Below are positions 6,896-63,684 of a DNA stretch of 64,000 nucleotides, one piece after another (the first letter of the stretch is position 1; each line of letters starts with the position of its first letter). The DNA comes from Octopus vulgaris (Eukaryota): assembly GCA_951406725.2 (NCBI GenBank), contig OX597816.1:119164001-119228000 (forward strand). The letters run 5' to 3'. A model generated the notes under the pieces. That model saw only the letters and a list, made by a program, of their open reading frames with translations, was not told the DNA's origin and did no database searches. Made by a program: the position numbers and the translations under genes.

Positions 6896-8454
6896 GTATG
6901 TATGTATGTATATAAGTATATATAGTGTGCTTGTACGTATGTGTATGTGTATTGGCATTTTTATGTGAACATATATATTTATAAGTATAATTCAGTATAT
7001 AACCATTTGTATACATGTATGTATATGTGTGATTGTACAGATTTATTTGTGTGTGAGTGTGTCTACATAAGTGTAAACATGCAGTTTGTGAATTTGTATA
7101 CATATGTGTGAGTCGTGTGTGTGTGTGTTTGTGTGTGTGTGTAATCGCGTGTAAGACGGGTGTATTGTTACAAATCTGTAATAACAAGTTTGTGACATGC
7201 ATCATCAACGGCATGGTGTGTGAGCGGTTAAACCCGGATTGAATAAGAAACACATGATGAGTTCAAAGGGGTAAATTGAATAGGATTCAAAGGACGCCAG
7301 TAGCTCCGCCTAAACTGCATGATACCCTGCTTAGGGATATCGACTGTATAAATCATATCATGTCGCCTGTAATAACTATGTTTAGACATTAACATTGATT
7401 TCAAACAGGAGCTCAATGGTAACATAATTAGAAGAGTTTTTTTTAATGGTATATGGACGCAATACGCCATGGGTACATATTTTGTCGGCCCCCGGAAGCA
7501 TCTTAAAAGAATGTAGCCAACAGTATACTACAAATGGTTTAATTGTCCGGCGTTCTACCGATTCTGCCAATTTACCAGCTTATGTTTGACGGCGATTTAA
7601 CAGAGTTGTTACAGTGTAGAATAGAATCCTTGGCAGTATTTCCGACTTCCTTTATTCTAAATCCAAATCTCGCCGATGTCATCTTTGTTTTTGATCTATT
7701 AGGGCGGAGGGGGAAGTCATAAAGCAAAATATCAGTCAGTTCTGTTCTCTCTCCTCCTCTCTCTGTCTCTCTTTCTCTCCTCCTTCTCCTCCTCCCTGCC
7801 TCCCTCTCCCCCTCTCGCTTACGTTTCTCTACCCTCTCTCCTGCTCTCTCTCAACCTCTCTCCACATCTCCTCTTCCTCCATCTCCATCTCCACACTCTC
7901 TCCCCCAGCACTGCTCCTGTCTGTCTTCCCTGTTTCTCTCTTTCTCTTTCCCTGTCTCTCTCCCTCTGTCTCTCTCTCTCCTGTGTCTCTCCCCTCCTCC
8001 ATTATTTCTCTCCGATTTTTTTCCACGAGAAGGAGCGTAGAGGATCACTCAGAACGTTCCTTTCTCCAAAAAGTGGGGCAGATTTGCGTAAAGGAGCACA
8101 GCATCTTCTTCTCGTATAGATACTAGGACGATACTGACCGACTTGATGTGCAGTGAATCACAGAAAGGAAAGAAAGGCCTACTTCTGTTTTCCTTTTTCA
8201 TTTTTCGTTACCATAGGAAGAAACGGTAGTGGTCAGGATCCTTTAAAGGGCTCCCGAGACTGGTGGGAAAGCGTGAGGGATGCATCCTCAAAACGCTTGC
8301 AACAAAGTAGGTTCTACTAAAGCACATAAGCACAAAGAGGTGTTAAACCAGGCGATTGATAAAATCAACCACATAAATTGAGCACAGCGAGATTTGGAGT
8401 CTAAACGTAAATTATAAGAACAAATACGGCAAGACTTTTTAACGATTCCACCAG

Positions 8455-9642
8455 ACAATTTCCCCAACCTGGAAGTTTGTTTATCGATCCCGAAAGAAGG
8501 CAAGTCAAAGTTTATATCAACGAGATTTGAACCCAGAACGCAAAAGTCCAGAATAAATACAAAGCATATAATATGTTTCTCTAACAACTCAGCCAAATCG
8601 CCGTCTGTAGCCATTATGATTCATTTCAAAATTTGGCACAAGGCCAGCAATTTCGGGTAGTGGTCGTGGGGTGGGGGTAAGATGATTAAATCGACTCCAG
8701 TGCGAAACTGGTATTTATTTTATCGACCCCGAAAGAGTGAAAGGCAAAGTTGACCTAGGTGGAATTTGAACTCAGAACATAAAGACGGACAAAATACTGC
8801 TAACGATCAGTCAGCTCGCCACCTTATGTAGCCATTATAATCGGTTTCAAATCTTGGCACGAGGTCAGCAGTTTTGGGAGAGGGGTAAGTCGATTACATC
8901 GATCTCATTGTTTAACTGATGCTTATTTTATCGACTCAGGAAGGATAAAAGACAATGTCAACCTCGGTAGTATTTGAACTCAGAATGTAAAGGGGGAAGA
9001 AGTGCCACTAAGCATTTTATTCGGCATGCTAATGATTCAGCCACCTTTTCTACTCTAGCACAAGGTCCGAAAGTTTGGGGAAGGTGGCCAATCGATTAGA
9101 TCGACCCCAGTACGCAACTGGTACTTAATTGATCGACCTCGAAAGGATGAAAGACAAAGACGACCTCGGTGGAATTTGAACTCAGAACGTAACGGTTGAC
9201 GAAATACCTATTTCTTTACTACCCACAAGGGGCTAAACACAGAGAGGGCAAACAAGGACAGACAAACTGATTAAGTCGATTATATCGACCTCAGTGCGTA
9301 ACTGGTACTTATTTAATCGACCCTGAAAGGATGAAAGGCAAAGTCGACCTCGTCGGAATTTGAACTCAGAACGTCGCAGCCGACGAAATACCGCTAAGCA
9401 TTTTGCCCGGCGTGCTAACGTTTCTTATTTCTTTATTGCCCATAAGGGGCTAAACATAGAGGGGACAAACAAGGACAGAAAAAGGGATTAAGATCGACCC
9501 CAGTGCGTGACTGGTACTTAGTTTATAAACCCCGAAAGGACGAAAGGCAAAGTCGACCGCGGCGGAACTTGAACTCAGAACGTAGCGGCAGACGAAATAC
9601 CGCTCGCCCGACGTGCTAACGATTCTGCCAGCTCGCTGCCTT
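8455..9642 (-). mobile_element. Head-to-tail array of about six SINE family A monomers
   Basis: Repeated tcgaccccgaaaggatgaaaggcaaagtcgacctcggcggaatttgaactcagaacgt blocks. The 15-bp flank tgtagccattat(g/a)at recurs at 8606 and 8827 and, degenerate, at 9644. Confidence 0.9.
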
Positions 9643-9792
9643 ATTTAGTCATTAGAATTAGAAATACTTATCTCGATGTCTTTAACCTGGCAGAACTGAT
9701 ATTTGAATAGTCTAGGTTCAAGTGATGTCTAAGAATCTCTTCCATCTTATATATTTGTTCATTTATTTGTAATGTGTTTTGAGGCTGTAATG

Positions 9793-9906
9793 CAGGCATG
9801 GGCAACATTTATCGAGGAGCGAGCCGCATCACTAAAAGACTCATGATAGTTTTTCGGTGGGCGTGCCATTCAGAAAATCACGCAACTCGCAGTTTACCCA
9901 TGACTG
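9793..9906. mobile_element. hAT-type MITE (114 bp)
   Basis: TIRs CAGGCATGGGCAA / TTACCCATGACTG. Flanks ctgtaatg (9785-9792) and ctataagg (9907-9914) match at 6/8, consistent with a decayed 8-bp hAT TSD. Confidence 0.65.
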
Positions 9907-10133
9907 CTATAAGGAACTCCTTTACCATACAGCTACTGGTTTCTGGGAAAGCGTACACTTAGATTATTAGTTGGGAGCCATTTCGTTTCGTTATATTGAC
10001 GTTATACGGTCAGTATCGTACTAGTATCTCTACGAGAAGAGGATGCTGGGCCCCTTTATGCAAATCTGCCCCACTTTTTGGAGAAAGGATTCGGACGAAC
10101 AAATTGGCACCAGTGCAATTTTTTTTTAAAGCC

Positions 10134-10223
10134 TGGTACTTATTCTGTTAACATCTTTTTGCCAAACCTACCAAACCGCTAATGTTTAGGGGATGTAAAC
10201 AAACTAACCACAGTGGTGAGGGA

Positions 10224-10260
<37 letters not shown>
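10134..10260 (-). mobile_element. SINE family B, 3' half, ending in its internal (CA)n tract
   Basis: tggtacttattct...tttttgccaaac..cgctaa..ggggatgtaaac matches 26474-26575 and 33268-33365. Confidence 0.7.
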
Positions 10261-10262
<2 letters not shown>

Positions 10263-10373
10263 TATTCTTTAACAAGATTAGTATTGACAGTGATTTCGTA
10301 GTCTAAGCCAATGATGGTTTTTCTGGCCGAAACTTCGAAGTTACTGCCAATGCTGTTTTTGTTAAAGAATAAT
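10261..10373. repeat. 113-bp palindrome (50-bp arms, 13-nt loop)
   Basis: 10261-10310 versus the reverse complement of 10324-10373: 39/50 identical. Five of the 11 mismatches become G-U pairs in a + strand transcript. Confidence 0.85.
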
Positions 10374-10737
10374 AATTTTCTGCTCTACAAAAGTATGGAG
10401 TAACCTTTCGGATTAATGTAAAAATTGTTGTTATTGTAACTGAACACACCAGGCAAAACGCTTGGCAGCATTTCGTTCATCTTTACATTTTGAGTTCAAA
10501 TTCGCTGAGGTCGACTTTGCATTTCCCTCTAGTTAACTCTCTCATATCGTCTTTGATGAAGGACTATCCCTAATATTCCAGAAACAGCTTTAAGACTACC
10601 TTTCTCTTTATAAATGCCCTTTATAAATTCCACATAGCCTTGGCTTTGTTGTCTCATTTTATTTAACACACACACACACATACACACATATATATATATA
10701 TATGTATTTATGTATTTATGTATGTATGTATGTATAT

Positions 10738-10865
10738 ATGACGAGCCTCTTTGCTTCTTCCATTTTGTGTCTATTATATCCATTTACAAGATATTGGTCG
10801 CCCCACAGCTGTAGTAGAAGACAATAATTGATCAAGGTGCCACGCAATGGGATTGAACTCGAAAC
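10738..10865 (-). mobile_element. SINE family B, 5' half, degenerate
   Basis: gtagtagaagac...caaggtgccacgcaatgggattgaactcgaaacc matches the family B head. Confidence 0.7.
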
Positions 10866-11683
10866 CGGCACCTAAAAAGTAGGTGGAAAGTTTGTTTGTG
10901 TGTTTGTTTGTTTGTTTTTGTAAGATGGCTAGATGTGAATTTAGGTAAATGTGGTTGCTACATCAGGTGATTCGATGCTTCTTCTGGTTGTTGTCGCAAA
11001 GAATATCTTTAAGCAGAATGAAGTGCAGAGTCGGAGACCAAAATGGCAACTAGTTATCCCGGTCTTTAGTACTACACTGTGATTACGGGAAAGACACTTA
11101 ACTATCACTGCTTTGGTAAAAAATAAAGCGTAAAGCGAGGAAATTCCATCCTAGGACACAAAAGAATTGAAGTTTCACCAACCTCTTCTGAGGGAACCTG
11201 TCTATGGTCATTTACCTTGCTAGAAATAATAGTCAACTTTCGTCTCAAATTACACTCAGCTGTCTTAACGGGAGATACGTTGTGTAATGTGGATATGTTA
11301 AATAATGTTGAGTTACATGACTCTAGCAAAGATAAACAGGATGGTCAGTTCAGTGTACTTTTTCACCACAACTTTCTCTCACTCTTTCTTCCTACTTCTG
11401 CCACAAAGCAGAGGAATCATGGTTTAACCTACTATGGTGTGGTAAACTTTCAGACCCTAGTCTAGATTACGAATTCTCTGTACACCAGGATGGTTCAGCT
11501 CTCCACCCGTTAAAAGCCACCGTTTACGGAATGAGGATAACAACGTAGCTTTCGCACTCGTGCAACCACCAGTTTATCGCGTGTGGTGGGTAGATCTTCA
11601 AGTTGCCACACGCATTCTTAGTAGCTTAGATTAGACTCGAATTAGAGATTATTCTTTGTGGCTAATGGCGTGAAACCTGATTG

Positions 11684-11817: not shown

Positions 11818-12322
11818 CAGCAGCGACAGCAACGACAACCACAACCGCATTACTTGCGCGCAATTGAGAGAATCTCAAATCATATTCTACCGTTTTAAAA
11901 AAGAAAACATTGAATAATGTAGTCCTTGATGGACTATGCCTCATCAAAAGACAAGATATAGACAGCTGGAATGTCTTTGGTCATAGGTTTACTCATCTAT
12001 TGAACAACCACCATTACCACAACAACAACGACGAGAACGAAAAACAACGATAACAATTGTACTACAAGCAATACGACTGTTATTGTTAGTAATCAGTAAT
12101 CTAAATGGCAATCAGTCTCACAGAAATACCTCTTTGTTCTCCATAACAACACCCAGGATGTTTCCAATTAAAATATTTTAATTCTTTAGACTAGCTGTCC
12201 CCACCTCTTTTGCATCAATTTTTCAAGGGACGGGAGATCACGTGCATAACAAAATACTATAAAATGCATAATATACAATTCATTCATTACATATATAATG
12301 ATTTCATATATTGGCAGCAATT

Positions 12323-13056
12323 TCCGTGGTCGAGACAATGGAATTTACCATGCTACGCCAGACTTCACGGTCCATCATGGCATTACGGAGGTCCTGTTGC
12401 TGGATGCCCGTATCCCTGGAGATTACATCAGGGTAGGAGAGTGTGCGCCCTCTGGTATTGCGAGTAGATGGCTTCCAGAGAAGAAGAGTAGAAATTACTT
12501 CTTTTTCAGCTCTGCAACAATGTCCAGCAAACTGAATTCTCGTACCTTTCACAAGAGATGACACAGGTGGTAGTTTCCCATATATTTGCATTTTGGTTGG
12601 ATGGTGCTTCCACGAGAGATTTTGAGTTCTCATAAGGAGGCGAGTGTAGGTTTCATCCAACCGCCTCTCAAGCTTCTTTGATAGCGTCCAGGTTTCTGAG
12701 CCATATAGTAGAATTGGTTCGACTGTGGCTTTGAAGATTTCAAGTTTGAAGTCTCTACTTAGATTTGATGACCAGATCTTATGCATGTCATTACAGGCTG
12801 ACCAGGCCATACCCTTTCTAGTTAGAAAGTCTTTTCCAGATGATGATATGTATAACCCAAGATATTTATAATCAGAAACCATATTTAAGGGCGCATTGTT
12901 GAGAGTATGGATGATGCAATCACTGTTGGACAGGCACTTGTTTATGTATTCAGTTTTGGCCTCATTGAGGTAAAGACCTACACAATTTGAGGCTTGTTCA
13001 AGAGATTGTAAAAGAGACTGGGCATTGGAGAGAGAATCACTGATAAGAGCGATGGT
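12323..13056 (-). mobile_element. RTE-like non-LTR retrotransposon fragment (RT domains 5-7 and C-terminal region) with an uninterrupted frame
   Basis: ORF 12304..13110: IALISDSLSNAQSLL...GLYLNEAKT...YKYLG...EPILLYGSETWTL...FAGHC...DREVWRSMV. These are typical RTE-group motifs. Homology starts just after the (Y)ADD position. Confidence 0.9.
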
Positions 13057-13424
13057 ATTGTTAAGACACAAAGTCTCATTCAAAAACTCATTATATTTAC
13101 GCACTCTCAATCGTCAGGTCTACTTTCCCAACATTTATAAATATAACTACTTCTTATCTAACATTTTTGCCAAAATTAATTACAAGTATATAAGTATAAA
13201 TAAGTAAATAAATAAAGTCATGAACCTTATAACTTTAAGACATAAAAACTTAAGGAATACAAACGGATATGAAATACGACTAAAAATATTTTATGGCTTG
13301 GTTGAGTTAATACCGTTTGGAGTTAATGAAGTTGTGGGTGTTTCTATCTCTAACACTATATATATATATGGTTGAAATTTACAGAAAAACAAAAGACGAA
13401 GACATGTGTATGTGTATGTATGTA

Positions 13425-26766: not shown

Positions 26767-27161
26767 TATCTACAAATAAATAAATAAATAAATAAATAAC
26801 AGACGATGGATGAATGTCAGTTCATTACATCTATTTCTAACGCATTTTAAATAGATGAATGTACTCATTCATTTATTCAAAATGCTTTAGGAACAGCTTT
26901 AATAAACTGGCATGTATTCGTCGTCTGCTATTTATTTATTTGCTTATAATACACCAAAAGAGATTCAGGACCTGTCAAACATTCTAGGGTATATCAAATA
27001 CCGTGTGATCAACACAACGTGCACTTTCAACCAGCCCCTAGGCGTTAAATACTCGGAAGGGTTGAATTCTCCGTGTGCACAACCTGAATATTCTACTGGA
27101 TGAACTTCAGTACCCAGTATATTTATTCGACTAAAAGCGGTGCTTGCAAGTTATACATACA

Positions 27162-27889
27162 TAAATGTGACCTCGTGTGTACCGTTGGCGATTTTTTTTC
27201 CTCTGTCTTCCCTTCTTTGGATCTTTCCTTCTCCCATGTTTCCGACGAAGAGCTCCGCTTGAAACGTTAAACCCTCCTTCTTTCCTTTTTTCTTGAGCGT
27301 CCAATAATACTATATTTGTTCCACGTCCTCGCGTTGTTGTGTTTTTTTGTGCTTTCTTGTTTGGATTAACTATATATATATAGTTAATCCAAACATGAAC
27401 AAAGAGAAAACACAACAACGCGAGGATTTGGAACAGTTATAGTGTTATTGGACACTCAGGAAAGGAAAGAAAGAAGGATTTCGAGCGGAGCTCTTCGTCA
27501 GAAACATAGAAAAAGGAAAGGTCCAAGGAAGGGAAGACGGAGAAAAAAAATCCTGTAAATGGTGGCGACAAAAAGAGAAAAGTGGAAATAGAAGAAGGAA
27601 GAAAGGTAAAAAGCGGATGAGAAGTGGAAGAGTCACGGACAAATTTTTGATGATTTCCAATCACGATTAGAGTGGCGGACTCCGGATGAATGGTAGCAGT
27701 AATCCGTAGGTGTAGGAATTCCAGGAATTGGTTACCCAAGTCAGTCAGAAGGCCGGGGTCCGTGTGAGTGTGTGGTATATATAATTAATCCAAACATGAA
27801 CAAAGAGAACGTGGAACAAGTATAGTGTTATTGGACGCCCAGGAAAGGAAAGAAAGAAGGAGAATTTAACGTTTCGAACGGACTTCTTC

Positions 27890-28014: not shown

Positions 28015-28545
28015 TGTTACTTCCTCTTACTTCTGTCATTTGACTCACTCAAGTCTGGTACTTCTTCTATTGGTCTTTTTTTAGCAAGCCGCTAAGTCAA
28101 AGGGACGTAAACAAATACTGGTTGTCAAGCGATGTGAAGACAAACACGAAAACATGCGCTCGCATCCTTCCATCCATCCATCCATCCATCCATCCATCCA
28201 TCCATACATACATGCATACATACATATGTACATATATACATACGTACGTACTTACATACATACATGCATACATACATACATACATACATATGTACATATA
28301 TACATACGTACGTATATACATACATACATACATACATACATACATACATACATACATACATACATACATACCTACATACATACATACATACATAAGACAG
28401 GCTTCCACACAAATCTCGCCTACCAAACTCACTCACACGCCACTGATCAGTCAGGTTCTGTAGCAGAAGGCACTTCACCAAAGTGCCGCGTAGTGAGACT
28501 GAACCTAAAATCATGTGATTGCAAAGTGAACATCTTAACCTATGT
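28015..28545 (-). mobile_element. SINE family B, degenerate, with an expanded internal microsatellite
   Basis: Both halves of family B are recognisable around (CATC)n/(CATA)n. Confidence 0.75.
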
Positions 28546-35071: not shown

Positions 35072-35180
35072 AATCCGTAGTATCCATGGATATCGGGTGG
35101 TTCATAGTTCATGCGTTCATTGCCTGATGAAATGAACGCATGAGCTATGATCCACCCGACGTCGAAGAACACTTTGGATT
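35072..35180. repeat. 109-bp hairpin/palindrome (50-bp arms, 9-nt loop)
   Basis: tcgggtggttcatagttcatgcgttcatt [gcctgatga] aatgaacgcatgagctatgatccacccga. The inner 29 bp have only 2 non-Watson-Crick positions. Confidence 0.85.
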
Positions 35181-50826: not shown

Positions 50827-51119
50827 CCGTTGAATAATTCTTTTTTGGAACAATGGATCTCGAAGCACTTAAAGCTATAAATAATAACATGTAAATATTG
50901 GCCTGAAAAATACTTTTCGATAGGAAAATTTAGAAGGCTGTCCGTAGGACACGAAGCTATATCTCCTGTAGACTTGATAAGCGTTCTAATATTGGACAAT
51001 CACGAACAGTCTTCGAGTTTTTCTATCCAAAAAGGTTGTACTGCCCCAAATTTTAATTCTTTCATTTATAGCTGTGTGTGCTTCGAGACCCATTGTTCCA
51101 AAACTAATTCCATCAACGG
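50827..51119. mobile_element. Palindromic MITE with ~120-bp inverted arms (possibly PIF/Harbinger-derived)
   Basis: ccgttga..ttttggaacaatggatctcgaagcac..agctataaat is mirrored by atttatagct..gtgcttcgagacccattgttccaaaa..tcaacgg. Superfamily uncertain. Confidence 0.7.
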
Positions 51120-53578: not shown

Positions 53579-53829
53579 GCACGCACGCACGCACGCACGC
53601 ACAAGCTTGTCAAAGATTTCAGTTCAATGACTTTGTACCTCTTCCTACCCAGCGTGCTTTGCACTCGCTCTACCTCACTAATTAACCGGCAGTTTTAACA
53701 CATAATAACTTTTAATCATTCATTTTCAAAATAAATCAATAGGTAGATAAATATTTGTTTTCTTTACTTTGCAGCATTCACTTATTTCCTTTCTTATTAC
53801 TGTCGAGAAGATAGGAAAGGTAAAGTTTT

Positions 53830-54250
53830 GGCGAAATGCATCGTCAACGAACCGGTTTCGATTTGTAGTAGTATTCATTATATTCAATTTCTGTTGTTAG
53901 GAGTGTCCAGAAAGGTTAGGAAGAGAAGAACGAGAGAGCAACATGCAAGACCTGTTAAAATTTGCGACTAAATTGTTTCATATGTCTCTGTACAATACCC
54001 TGATCTCGTTGTTCTGAGTTGTCCTTCATTCTCGTAGAGGTGAACTTGTGAAAAGGCTCATAGCTTACGGTTGTTTTGTTGTTGTATTATAACATATATT
54101 AATACTCTGCGATTGTCTTCATCGGTAGTCTAATTATGGCTAGGTCAATACTTAAAGGTTTCTAGTTTTAGGAAGATTTATGGCATATATTACATAGTAC
54201 GTCACACTAAATGTTCGAGTATTGTGCTTTCAACAAGTTTATCTATGGAA
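53830..54250 (-). mobile_element. Penelope-like reverse transcriptase remnant
   Basis: Frameshifted pieces VSY/SLFTSSPL (54035-54070), SSLPNL and RFVDDAF (53834-53854), in the order expected for PLE RT motifs 3-5. Confidence 0.5.
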
Positions 54251-54640: not shown

Positions 54641-55969
54641 ATTTACTCCACGACAAACTAAACCTAAACTTAAACCTTCTCCTATTAATATCAGCTTTGC
54701 TTTTACCTTTACAAGTGATTAATGCTTTCCGGCTTTTTATACAAGTTACAATTTACGGAATCTCACTCAGCACGCTCGAATTTTTCCGCGCGATTCACAT
54801 TTGATTATTTTGTACTTTAGGCACAAGGTTACAGATTTTCGAAGCGGTTAATGATTGGTACTTGATTTAATCGATCTCAGAAGGACGAAAAGTGAATTTT
54901 AACTCAGAGCATAACGGCAGGATTTTAACTCAGAGTGTATCGTTAAAAGCCAAAATAAATAATTTATCTGACGTTTTAACAATTCTGCCAATCGACTACC
55001 CTAAACCGAACACAAATTACCTAAACCATAAATGTATTCTACCCTTTTTTTTATAAGTCTAAGTCCATTCGCTACGGGAGACAAGGTTGGACAATTGTCA
55101 TGCTGATGATGCGTATTGAAGCAGAAACATATCTTTCGAATTTCTAGAGAAAAATGCTTTTCTTTTTCCTAAGCGACATGTAAGTTTCGAAGACCTCTTG
55201 ACTCTTGAGATGATTTCCCCTTCTGAAGAGGAGCTGGTCTTAATTGCTATTTGGTTATTATGATGCATCCTCTTGAGACGGAGATAATTTTGATAAATCA
55301 AGAATAAGGTATTTGATATAAGCTGTATTTGTCTATGTCGTTCATGTATGAGCCTCTGAATACTTCGAGTATTCTTTTGGATCATTTTTGCGTAAATTAG
55401 ATTATAACAAACTAGTTTTTGTAACTGTAATTAGCTTTTTATTGTTCACTACATTGAATATGTTAACATTTTCTTAACTCTTGTTTTCAGGCAGACAGTG
55501 TTTGTGAATTATTTTACACTCGAGCAATTATGTTTTTATACACCAGCCAATAAGTCATCTGATATTTTAGGTCAATGTTTCTTTCGTCATTACTTAGGAA
55601 AGTGTAAGACCTATTAATACTTAGTGAGGTCAAAGTTAAACCGAAATAAGCCTGGTTTATCGCCTATATATGCCCAGAAAATGAAAATGGCATTTGGTCA
55701 GTGACTAGTATTGTTTTTAACTTCTAATATTGTTTTACAGGATTATGTATAGTTACCCTTTTAATAACTATGTCTTGTTGCCTTTTTGATACTCACGGCA
55801 TTAAATATATTTATAATAATTAAGTAATCGCCTACTTGGTTACTGGAGGATACTTGGAATAATTTGTATTGAAAAAAGCATGGCAATGGCTAAACAGTCT
55901 TCACCCAGAGATTTTACACCAAAAAGAAACAACAAAGAAATTATTTGATAAAGTGACAATTTAACACAT

Positions 55970-62972: not shown

Positions 62973-63684
62973 TCTGGGTGCAAATAATTCATGAGCATTT
63001 CTTTTTTTCAAATTTAAAAATGCACGTAGAAATTAAATGCTTTGGTAAAATGTTTTATGTCATTTAAAAGAGAACTTTTGCTCCACAAGATAGTGTGTTT
63101 TGATTTTTCAATTTTATTGATTTTTGTGTATTTCTAGATCATTAAAATGGAATGTCAAGTGGACAAAACTGAGCATTTTCGACACCAGTTACTTTTTACA
63201 TTTAATCGAGGTGTTAAGGCTGCCGAAGCTGTTCGTAAGATTTGTGCTGTGTATGGAGAAGGAGCAATGCCTCAAAGTACCGCCAGCCGTTGATTTTCGC
63301 GCTTCAAAAATGGGAATTTTGACGTTAAGGACAGATTACATATCGGTCGATCAACCGAGTTCGATGAAGAACGATTGAATGAAATTCATCACGAAAATCG
63401 ACATCAGACGACTAGAGAATTGACGGAGCAGATAGACTGTGATAAAAAAACTGTGGTGAACCAACTTAACTCAATGGGCAAGGTTCAGAAACTCAGTGCT
63501 TGAGCGAAAACAACAAAAATCATCGCTCCACAATCGCTTCCACGAAATCGCTCAACACATGATTTCAAACAACGTTTTCTTTATCGCATTGTCACTAGCG
63601 ATGAAAAATGGCTCCTTTACGCCAATATGAAGCAGCGAAAAAAACGGCTCAGCTCCGAGAAACAAGCGACTCCGAGGAAAGCAA
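62973..63684 (+). mobile_element. Mariner (Mos1/Hsmar-type) 5' half, 3'-truncated
   Basis: ATG at 63147: MECQVDKTEHFRHQLLFTFNRGVKAAEAVRKICAVYGEGA..FKNGNFDVKD..TTRELTE..RIVTSDEKWLLY, with in-frame stops and the WVPH linker deleted. Confidence 0.9.

Follow-up and report, generated by a model that had tools for sequence, protein, structure and literature searches.

Inverted duplications of unique DNA were reported at 17 of 29 Drosophila inversions, with duplicated stretches from 46 bp upward, a mean identity of about 88% and often an origin from one breakpoint only (PMC1885836). Inverted templated insertions were described as accumulating among germline variants, the insertions called being those within 100 bp of their template (PMC8421209). 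Inverted terminal or flanking repeats are also described for Spy transposons (PMC4122938), for DIRS1-like elements, whose required internal complementary region measures 85-130 bp (PMC3266345), and for Penelope-like elements (PLEs), where one end often carries a 30-40-bp tail and a bias for microsatellites is seen (PMC8557442). Some PLEs have no TSDs and some capture host DNA, according to PMC3846280.

The module considered here lies in a 64-kb window (the whole stretch of octopus DNA analysed) of microsatellite-rich animal DNA with abundant SINE, LINE and mariner debris. Elsewhere in the window we observed a Mos1-type mariner HTH (63138-63290, +; E 5e-14) and MITE-like palindromes, 67-87% self-complementary, at 26800-26927, 27190-27552, 35093-35159 and 50843-51103. 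The window's best exon-like sites by a crude splice score were 53775-53914 and 55491-55603 (+), and the frame covering the latter had no Pfam match. None of the SINE motifs was found in the full-text literature or the supplement files searched (PMC13282606, PMC4758252 and PMC4824008).

The module is bounded by two arms of 83 nt, the left at 8058..8140 (+) and the right at 10007..10089 (-), 1.9 kb apart. The right arm is the reverse complement of the left with six substitutions (77/83 positions complementary; no gaps or indels). Both ends are sharp, as identity falls to 6/30 outside the arms and 9/30 inside, and gapped alignment found no inverted extension into the inner flanks (p 0.35). Alignment thus reproduced the coordinates and counts of the initial annotation, which had described 83-bp inverted repeats with sharp boundaries. 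Its claim that the arm sequence occurs nowhere else in the window was also upheld, with blastn (word size 7) and nhmmer agreeing on the lack of a third copy in the 64 kb. A full-text literature search with two arm motifs matched no paper.

The six substitutions, three transitions and three transversions, correspond to a divergence of 7.2% (95% interval 2.7-15%). The longest exact run between the arms is 30 nt, and the number of such runs expected by chance is about 1e-8. Of the 27 inverted matches within 5 kb that were listed, no other of at least 40 nt equals the arms in identity. The outer 30 nt of the arms are free of mismatches (p 0.06), which we counted against a repair scar. At the rate of 0.0036 per Myr given in PMC13282606, the arm pair would be about 10 Myr old (range 4-23), if this octopus rate applies.

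The interior (8141-10006; 1.87 kb) begins with 236 nt of unique DNA (8141..8376). A putative exon in this part would be delimited by a strong acceptor-like site (8215-8216, +) and by one of three donor-like sites (8263, 8273 and 8307). It is followed by seven SINE1 copies or fragments arranged head to tail (8377..9638, +), with 68-92% identity to the window majority sequence, and then by 135 nt of unique DNA. Next comes a MITE (9793..9906), presumably of the hAT superfamily, with decayed ends and an 8-bp duplication that agrees at 6/8 positions. The last 99 nt before the right arm (9908..10006) are again unique.

The arms had been described as better conserved than the elements nested between them. 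The point estimates bore this out for all seven SINE1 matches (93% for the arms vs 76, 79, 79, 85, 88, 90 and 92% for the SINE1 matches against their best partners in the 64 kb, a measure that overstates SINE1 age). The interval of the arms, however, excludes only three of the seven and contains the other four. The three excluded matches clearly predate the arms, and both the ends and the duplication of the MITE are more decayed than the arms. This indicated that at least part of the interior was there before the arm pair, a situation that calls for capture, homogenisation or selection, or else for duplication around DNA already in place.

In the module all seven SINE1 copies lie on the + strand, vs 22 of 32 on the - strand in the rest of the window. 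The inside copies form one cluster, and the contrast is weak evidence for inversion; the skew and SINE-orientation tests for inversion were without power.

To the left of the module lies a CT-rich low-complexity tract (7740..8019; 75-95% pyrimidine per 20 nt), then a unique spacer of about 38 nt (8020..8057) that ends in an 11-mer common to SINE1 (8047-8057). The reported absence of a TSD was confirmed by a scan of 81 boundary offsets, which gave a single 3-mer, at chance level. Neither arm taken alone had a TSD. The joined flanks had been thought to resemble a SINE fragment. The left 11-mer supports this (p 0.01-0.04), but the right flank, judged conditionally on the left, added no significant SINE1 continuity (p 0.12-0.42).

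Two smaller motifs in the initial annotation were present but weak. The octamer at 10058-10065 is present in the right arm, but it occurs five times in the window and not in the left arm. Both copies of another 11-mer, in the two inner unique stretches (8264 and 9944), are present, but their pairing is marginal (p 0.03-0.10 when compared with real DNA of the window). A post hoc chain of this 11-mer and two shorter motifs gave p 0.008-0.045. The three motifs keep their order and orientation between the two inner sides (8207-8275 and 9920-9955); the chain reached this level for the short segment and was not significant for the long one. It is possibly an older direct duplication.

The right junction was the most informative. 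An old SINE2 body (10090..10219, -), 71% identical to a young copy (78/110), starts where the right arm ends: its profile match begins at 10090, the first base past the arm. With a single-copy SINE2 query the alignment drifted to 10079, at low confidence. The copy lacks model positions 24-65, about 42 nt of its 3' tail. A SINE2 head half at 10753..10866 (-) is probably part of the same copy. In the young SINE2 copies (26388 and 33183), the head, on the minus strand, is tRNA-like, with box labels that are our assumption, and the tail is a simple repeat. The 10090-10145 part of the old copy also aligns to the SINE1 5' core, and the two families seem to have a common core. Also in the old SINE2, beside a CA tract, is a MITE-like imperfect palindrome of 111 nt (10262-10372; 70% self-complementary).

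SINE insertion starts from the 3' end, by target-primed reverse transcription, and the SINE2 tail was therefore lost after insertion. The models differ in where they place it. Insertion of the module as an element would leave the tail at the left outer flank, inversion would leave it reversed in the left arm, and insertion of the 83-mer alone would leave it in the right arm. The tail was absent at all three rejoinable flanks (p 0.23, 0.48 and 0.87 against 2124 window tiles), and it was found nowhere in 7601-10400. In simulations, an intact tail was recovered in 97-99% of cases at 30-35% divergence; recovery fell to 52-68% with 12 nt lost and to less than 10% with 25 nt lost. Clean insertion, clean inversion and clean insertion of the 83-mer are thus all unlikely, inversion being excluded at the same power as transposition. 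Since the tail is missing despite this power, tens of bases would have been lost at the junction. Repair typically causes losses of this size, and cut-and-paste insertion typically does not.

The coincidence of the right arm with the SINE2 truncation is no more than suggestive. By chance, at least one of the four arm ends would have a SINE end no further than 5 nt away with a probability of 0.07 at the SINE density of the window and 0.21 at the local one, and a second old SINE2 copy, at 28051, is also without a tail. Reconstructed junctions (inversion, module insertion and single-arm insertion) gave no significant match to SINE1 or SINE2, and the re-inverted interior junctions gave p 0.2-1.0. 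None of the rejoined junctions restored an ancestral sequence, and both the inversion and the insertion are therefore putative. Two continuities noticed by eye were rejected: a SINE2 tail in the left arm (11.6% of tiles reach that score) and a SINE1 rebuilt from the left-outer and right-inner flanks (p 0.24-1.0 given the 11-mer).

We interpreted the module as the scar of a single break-repair or template-switch event, with a probability of about 0.52. The features in favour are an inverted duplication of DNA otherwise unique within the window, free of gaps, sharp-ended and without a TSD. Sequence loss at the right junction, too, is more in keeping with repair than with precise transposition. 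The truncation of the SINE at the right arm points to the left arm as the original and the right arm as the copy. Such an event would have involved two switches, separated by about 2 kb; the left 83 nt would have been copied in inverted orientation into 10007-10089 and the tail of the old SINE there deleted. It is about even whether that event also flipped the 1.87-kb interior, as in a staggered-break or template-switch inversion, or left it in place, as in a templated insertion; both versions need two switches and yield the identical present sequence. The arms would then have decayed neutrally, probably with no selected function. Four readings had originally been offered. The inversion scar, once widened to a scar of break repair or template switching, fits best, whereas the novel TIR element failed the tests described below.

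The locus resembles the Drosophila inversions of Ranz et al. 2007 in that unique DNA is duplicated in inverted orientation, with a size and identity in the reported range, on one side only and without a TSD; it differs in that the interval here is just 1.87 kb and its inversion is a putative reading (PMC1885836). The junction also resembles MMBIR-type templated insertions as described in PMC8421209, being a short inverted copy of nearby DNA, here accompanied by sequence loss; the template, however, is 1.9 kb off, compared with 100 bp or less there. The inversions of Ranz and colleagues are reportedly far larger than 2 kb.

Searches for coding, structured-RNA and foreign sequences bear on the readings that follow. 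The + frames at 7997-8116 and 8147-8317 gave six and three candidates, all with E above 10. For the right-arm frame 10000-10179, phmmer returned three matches among 1.84 billion proteins; all were tandem-repeat proteins that summed weak stretches, and they were rejected. No PDB match was obtained for any of the four arm-region frames, and neither of two frames had a usable match in the ESM Atlas. Pfam gave nothing in the module, first with 42 and then with 352 unmasked window frames of 36 aa or more. The word-index protein searches covered proteins up to 2000 aa. As a positive control, a LINE reverse-transcriptase frame (12313-13113) returned 321 matches, one named animal protein included, with no named octopus protein among the 120 matches listed. 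This made the negative protein results moderately strong only. The control frame is itself a LINE fragment on the - strand with 321 homologues, which we take to be RTE. Rfam gave nothing of weight over the arms, and ARAGORN found no genes. A prokaryotic or vector origin was rejected, as searches of phages, plasmids and GTDB genomes were negative.

Taken together, the mobile-element readings have a limited chance of being right. The better of them, though still unlikely, is that of a non-autonomous DNA transposon whose TIRs are 83 bp long and which either took up older DNA or received SINE insertions afterwards. The geometry is TIR-like, with terminal inverted repeats present, and the join of the left and right outer flanks was the sole one of five rejoined junctions to give a SINE1 profile match (5.1 bits), which was not significant on the p test. 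In O. vulgaris, 238 TIR families are reported to have been active recently, and 49 of these are unclassified (PMC13282606). Against this, the module has no TSD, although the older internal MITE retains 6/8 positions of its own. The Pfam frames contain no transposase remnant, and the contents are older than the ends. The precise empty site also fails, with the SINE2 tail absent at the left flank. A novel TIR element is therefore poorly supported: no TSD, no coding remnants, and an empty-site test that failed at a power of 97-99% for an intact tail.

Two known families with TSD-less inverted ends were compared directly. The module shares with Spy transposons, as described in PMC4122938, TIRs without a TSD, but its flanks are CGT / TTC, compared with AAA / TTT in Spy, and its terminus is TCCTTTCT, compared with GGANNNNG. 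Spy membership was rejected, as neither the AAA|TTT target nor the GGANNNNG terminus is present. With DIRS1-like elements, as described in PMC3266345, it shares inverted terminal repeats of such size, the lack of a TSD and NTT ends; it has no divergent outer ITR part or extension. The NTT ends (GTT at 8056-8058 and ATT at 10089-10091) have a rough chance of about 3%, post hoc. No internal complementary region was seen, since no minus-strand match of the termini to the interior was found (best 14/18, p 0.11). Pfam found no RT/RNase H and no tyrosine recombinase ORFs of the DIRS1-like kind in the module.

A Penelope-like insertion, for example of a Naiad, is improbable. It would consist of inverted, truncated pseudo-LTRs with captured host DNA between them. 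A 10-residue stretch in the arm frame (8049-8207, - / 10000-10182, +) resembles what we take to be a Penelope-type RT motif; this likeness had no true match among the 1.84 billion proteins. The roughly 38 unique nt between the CT tract and the left arm are a loose fit to Penelope tail geometry. There is no remnant of an RT or a GIY-YIG endonuclease and no direct copy of a pseudo-LTR. The hammerhead core is absent and Rfam had no match, though hammerheads are absent from Naiads too. Naiads occur in Octopus and are described as being without canonical hammerheads (PMC8557442). The likeness to Penelope and Naiad thus consists of inverted flanking repeats, an optional TSD, a possible 30-40-nt tail and a simple-sequence neighbour; the module differs from their published descriptions in having no ORF remnant, no direct pseudo-LTR and an interior of old SINEs (PMC3846280, PMC8557442).

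A selected long-range pre-mRNA duplex, serving as an ADAR substrate or in the control of splicing or back-splicing of a short exon (8217-8272/8306), is a little less probable again. The predicted duplex energies are -141 (+) and -137 (-) kcal/mol. When 2.1 kb were folded, the arms dominated the predicted fold, with 79/83 (+) and 78/83 (-) positions paired in register; any such inverted repeat would fold likewise. The acceptor-like site, 75 nt inward of the left arm, is among the top 13 of 3610 AG sites on the + strand by a crude weight matrix, and the open frame behind it is in phase with the left-arm frame. The donor within the arm, on the other hand, is poor (score -4.1), the four frames over or beside the arms have no protein homologues, and no host gene was identified among the 352 frames. 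The mismatches do not preserve pairing either, as G:U was kept in 2/6 on the + strand or 1/6 on the - strand. The earlier suggestion of an RNA duplex therefore stands as thermodynamically expected, if the arms are co-transcribed, but the mismatches give no sign of selection for pairing. Editing in octopus is very high, and for 0.44% of 50-bp loci in O. bimaculoides a near-perfect inverted partner was reported no more than 2 kb away (PMC5625713). This figure, obtained with no low-complexity filter, shows loosely that such pairs are common.

There is a slight chance of an undescribed cephalopod family with long inverted ends, NTT termini, no TSD and no DIRS internal complementary region, which would move kilobases of host DNA and leave ADAR duplexes behind.

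Equally slight is the chance that the arms are two independent neighbouring copies of a low-copy dispersed repeat. By arithmetic for a 2.8-Gb genome, a given 64 kb might contain no member of a repeat family that numbers some tens of thousands of copies. The two arms, however, coincide exactly at both ends, neither has a tail, a TSD or an internal TIR, and no further copy is present in 62 kb. An assembly artefact is barely credible, for although inverted structures can mislead assemblers (PMC8557442), six substitutions (7%) far exceed those of a misjoined copy from the same read.

As a repair scar, the module would be of little consequence: one more case of a known route to inverted duplications and, in a lineage with heavy RNA editing, possibly an incidental substrate of that editing. 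Its importance would be greater if the 83-mer marked a TSD-less family that moves host DNA, or if the arms formed a conserved duplex that controls an exon.
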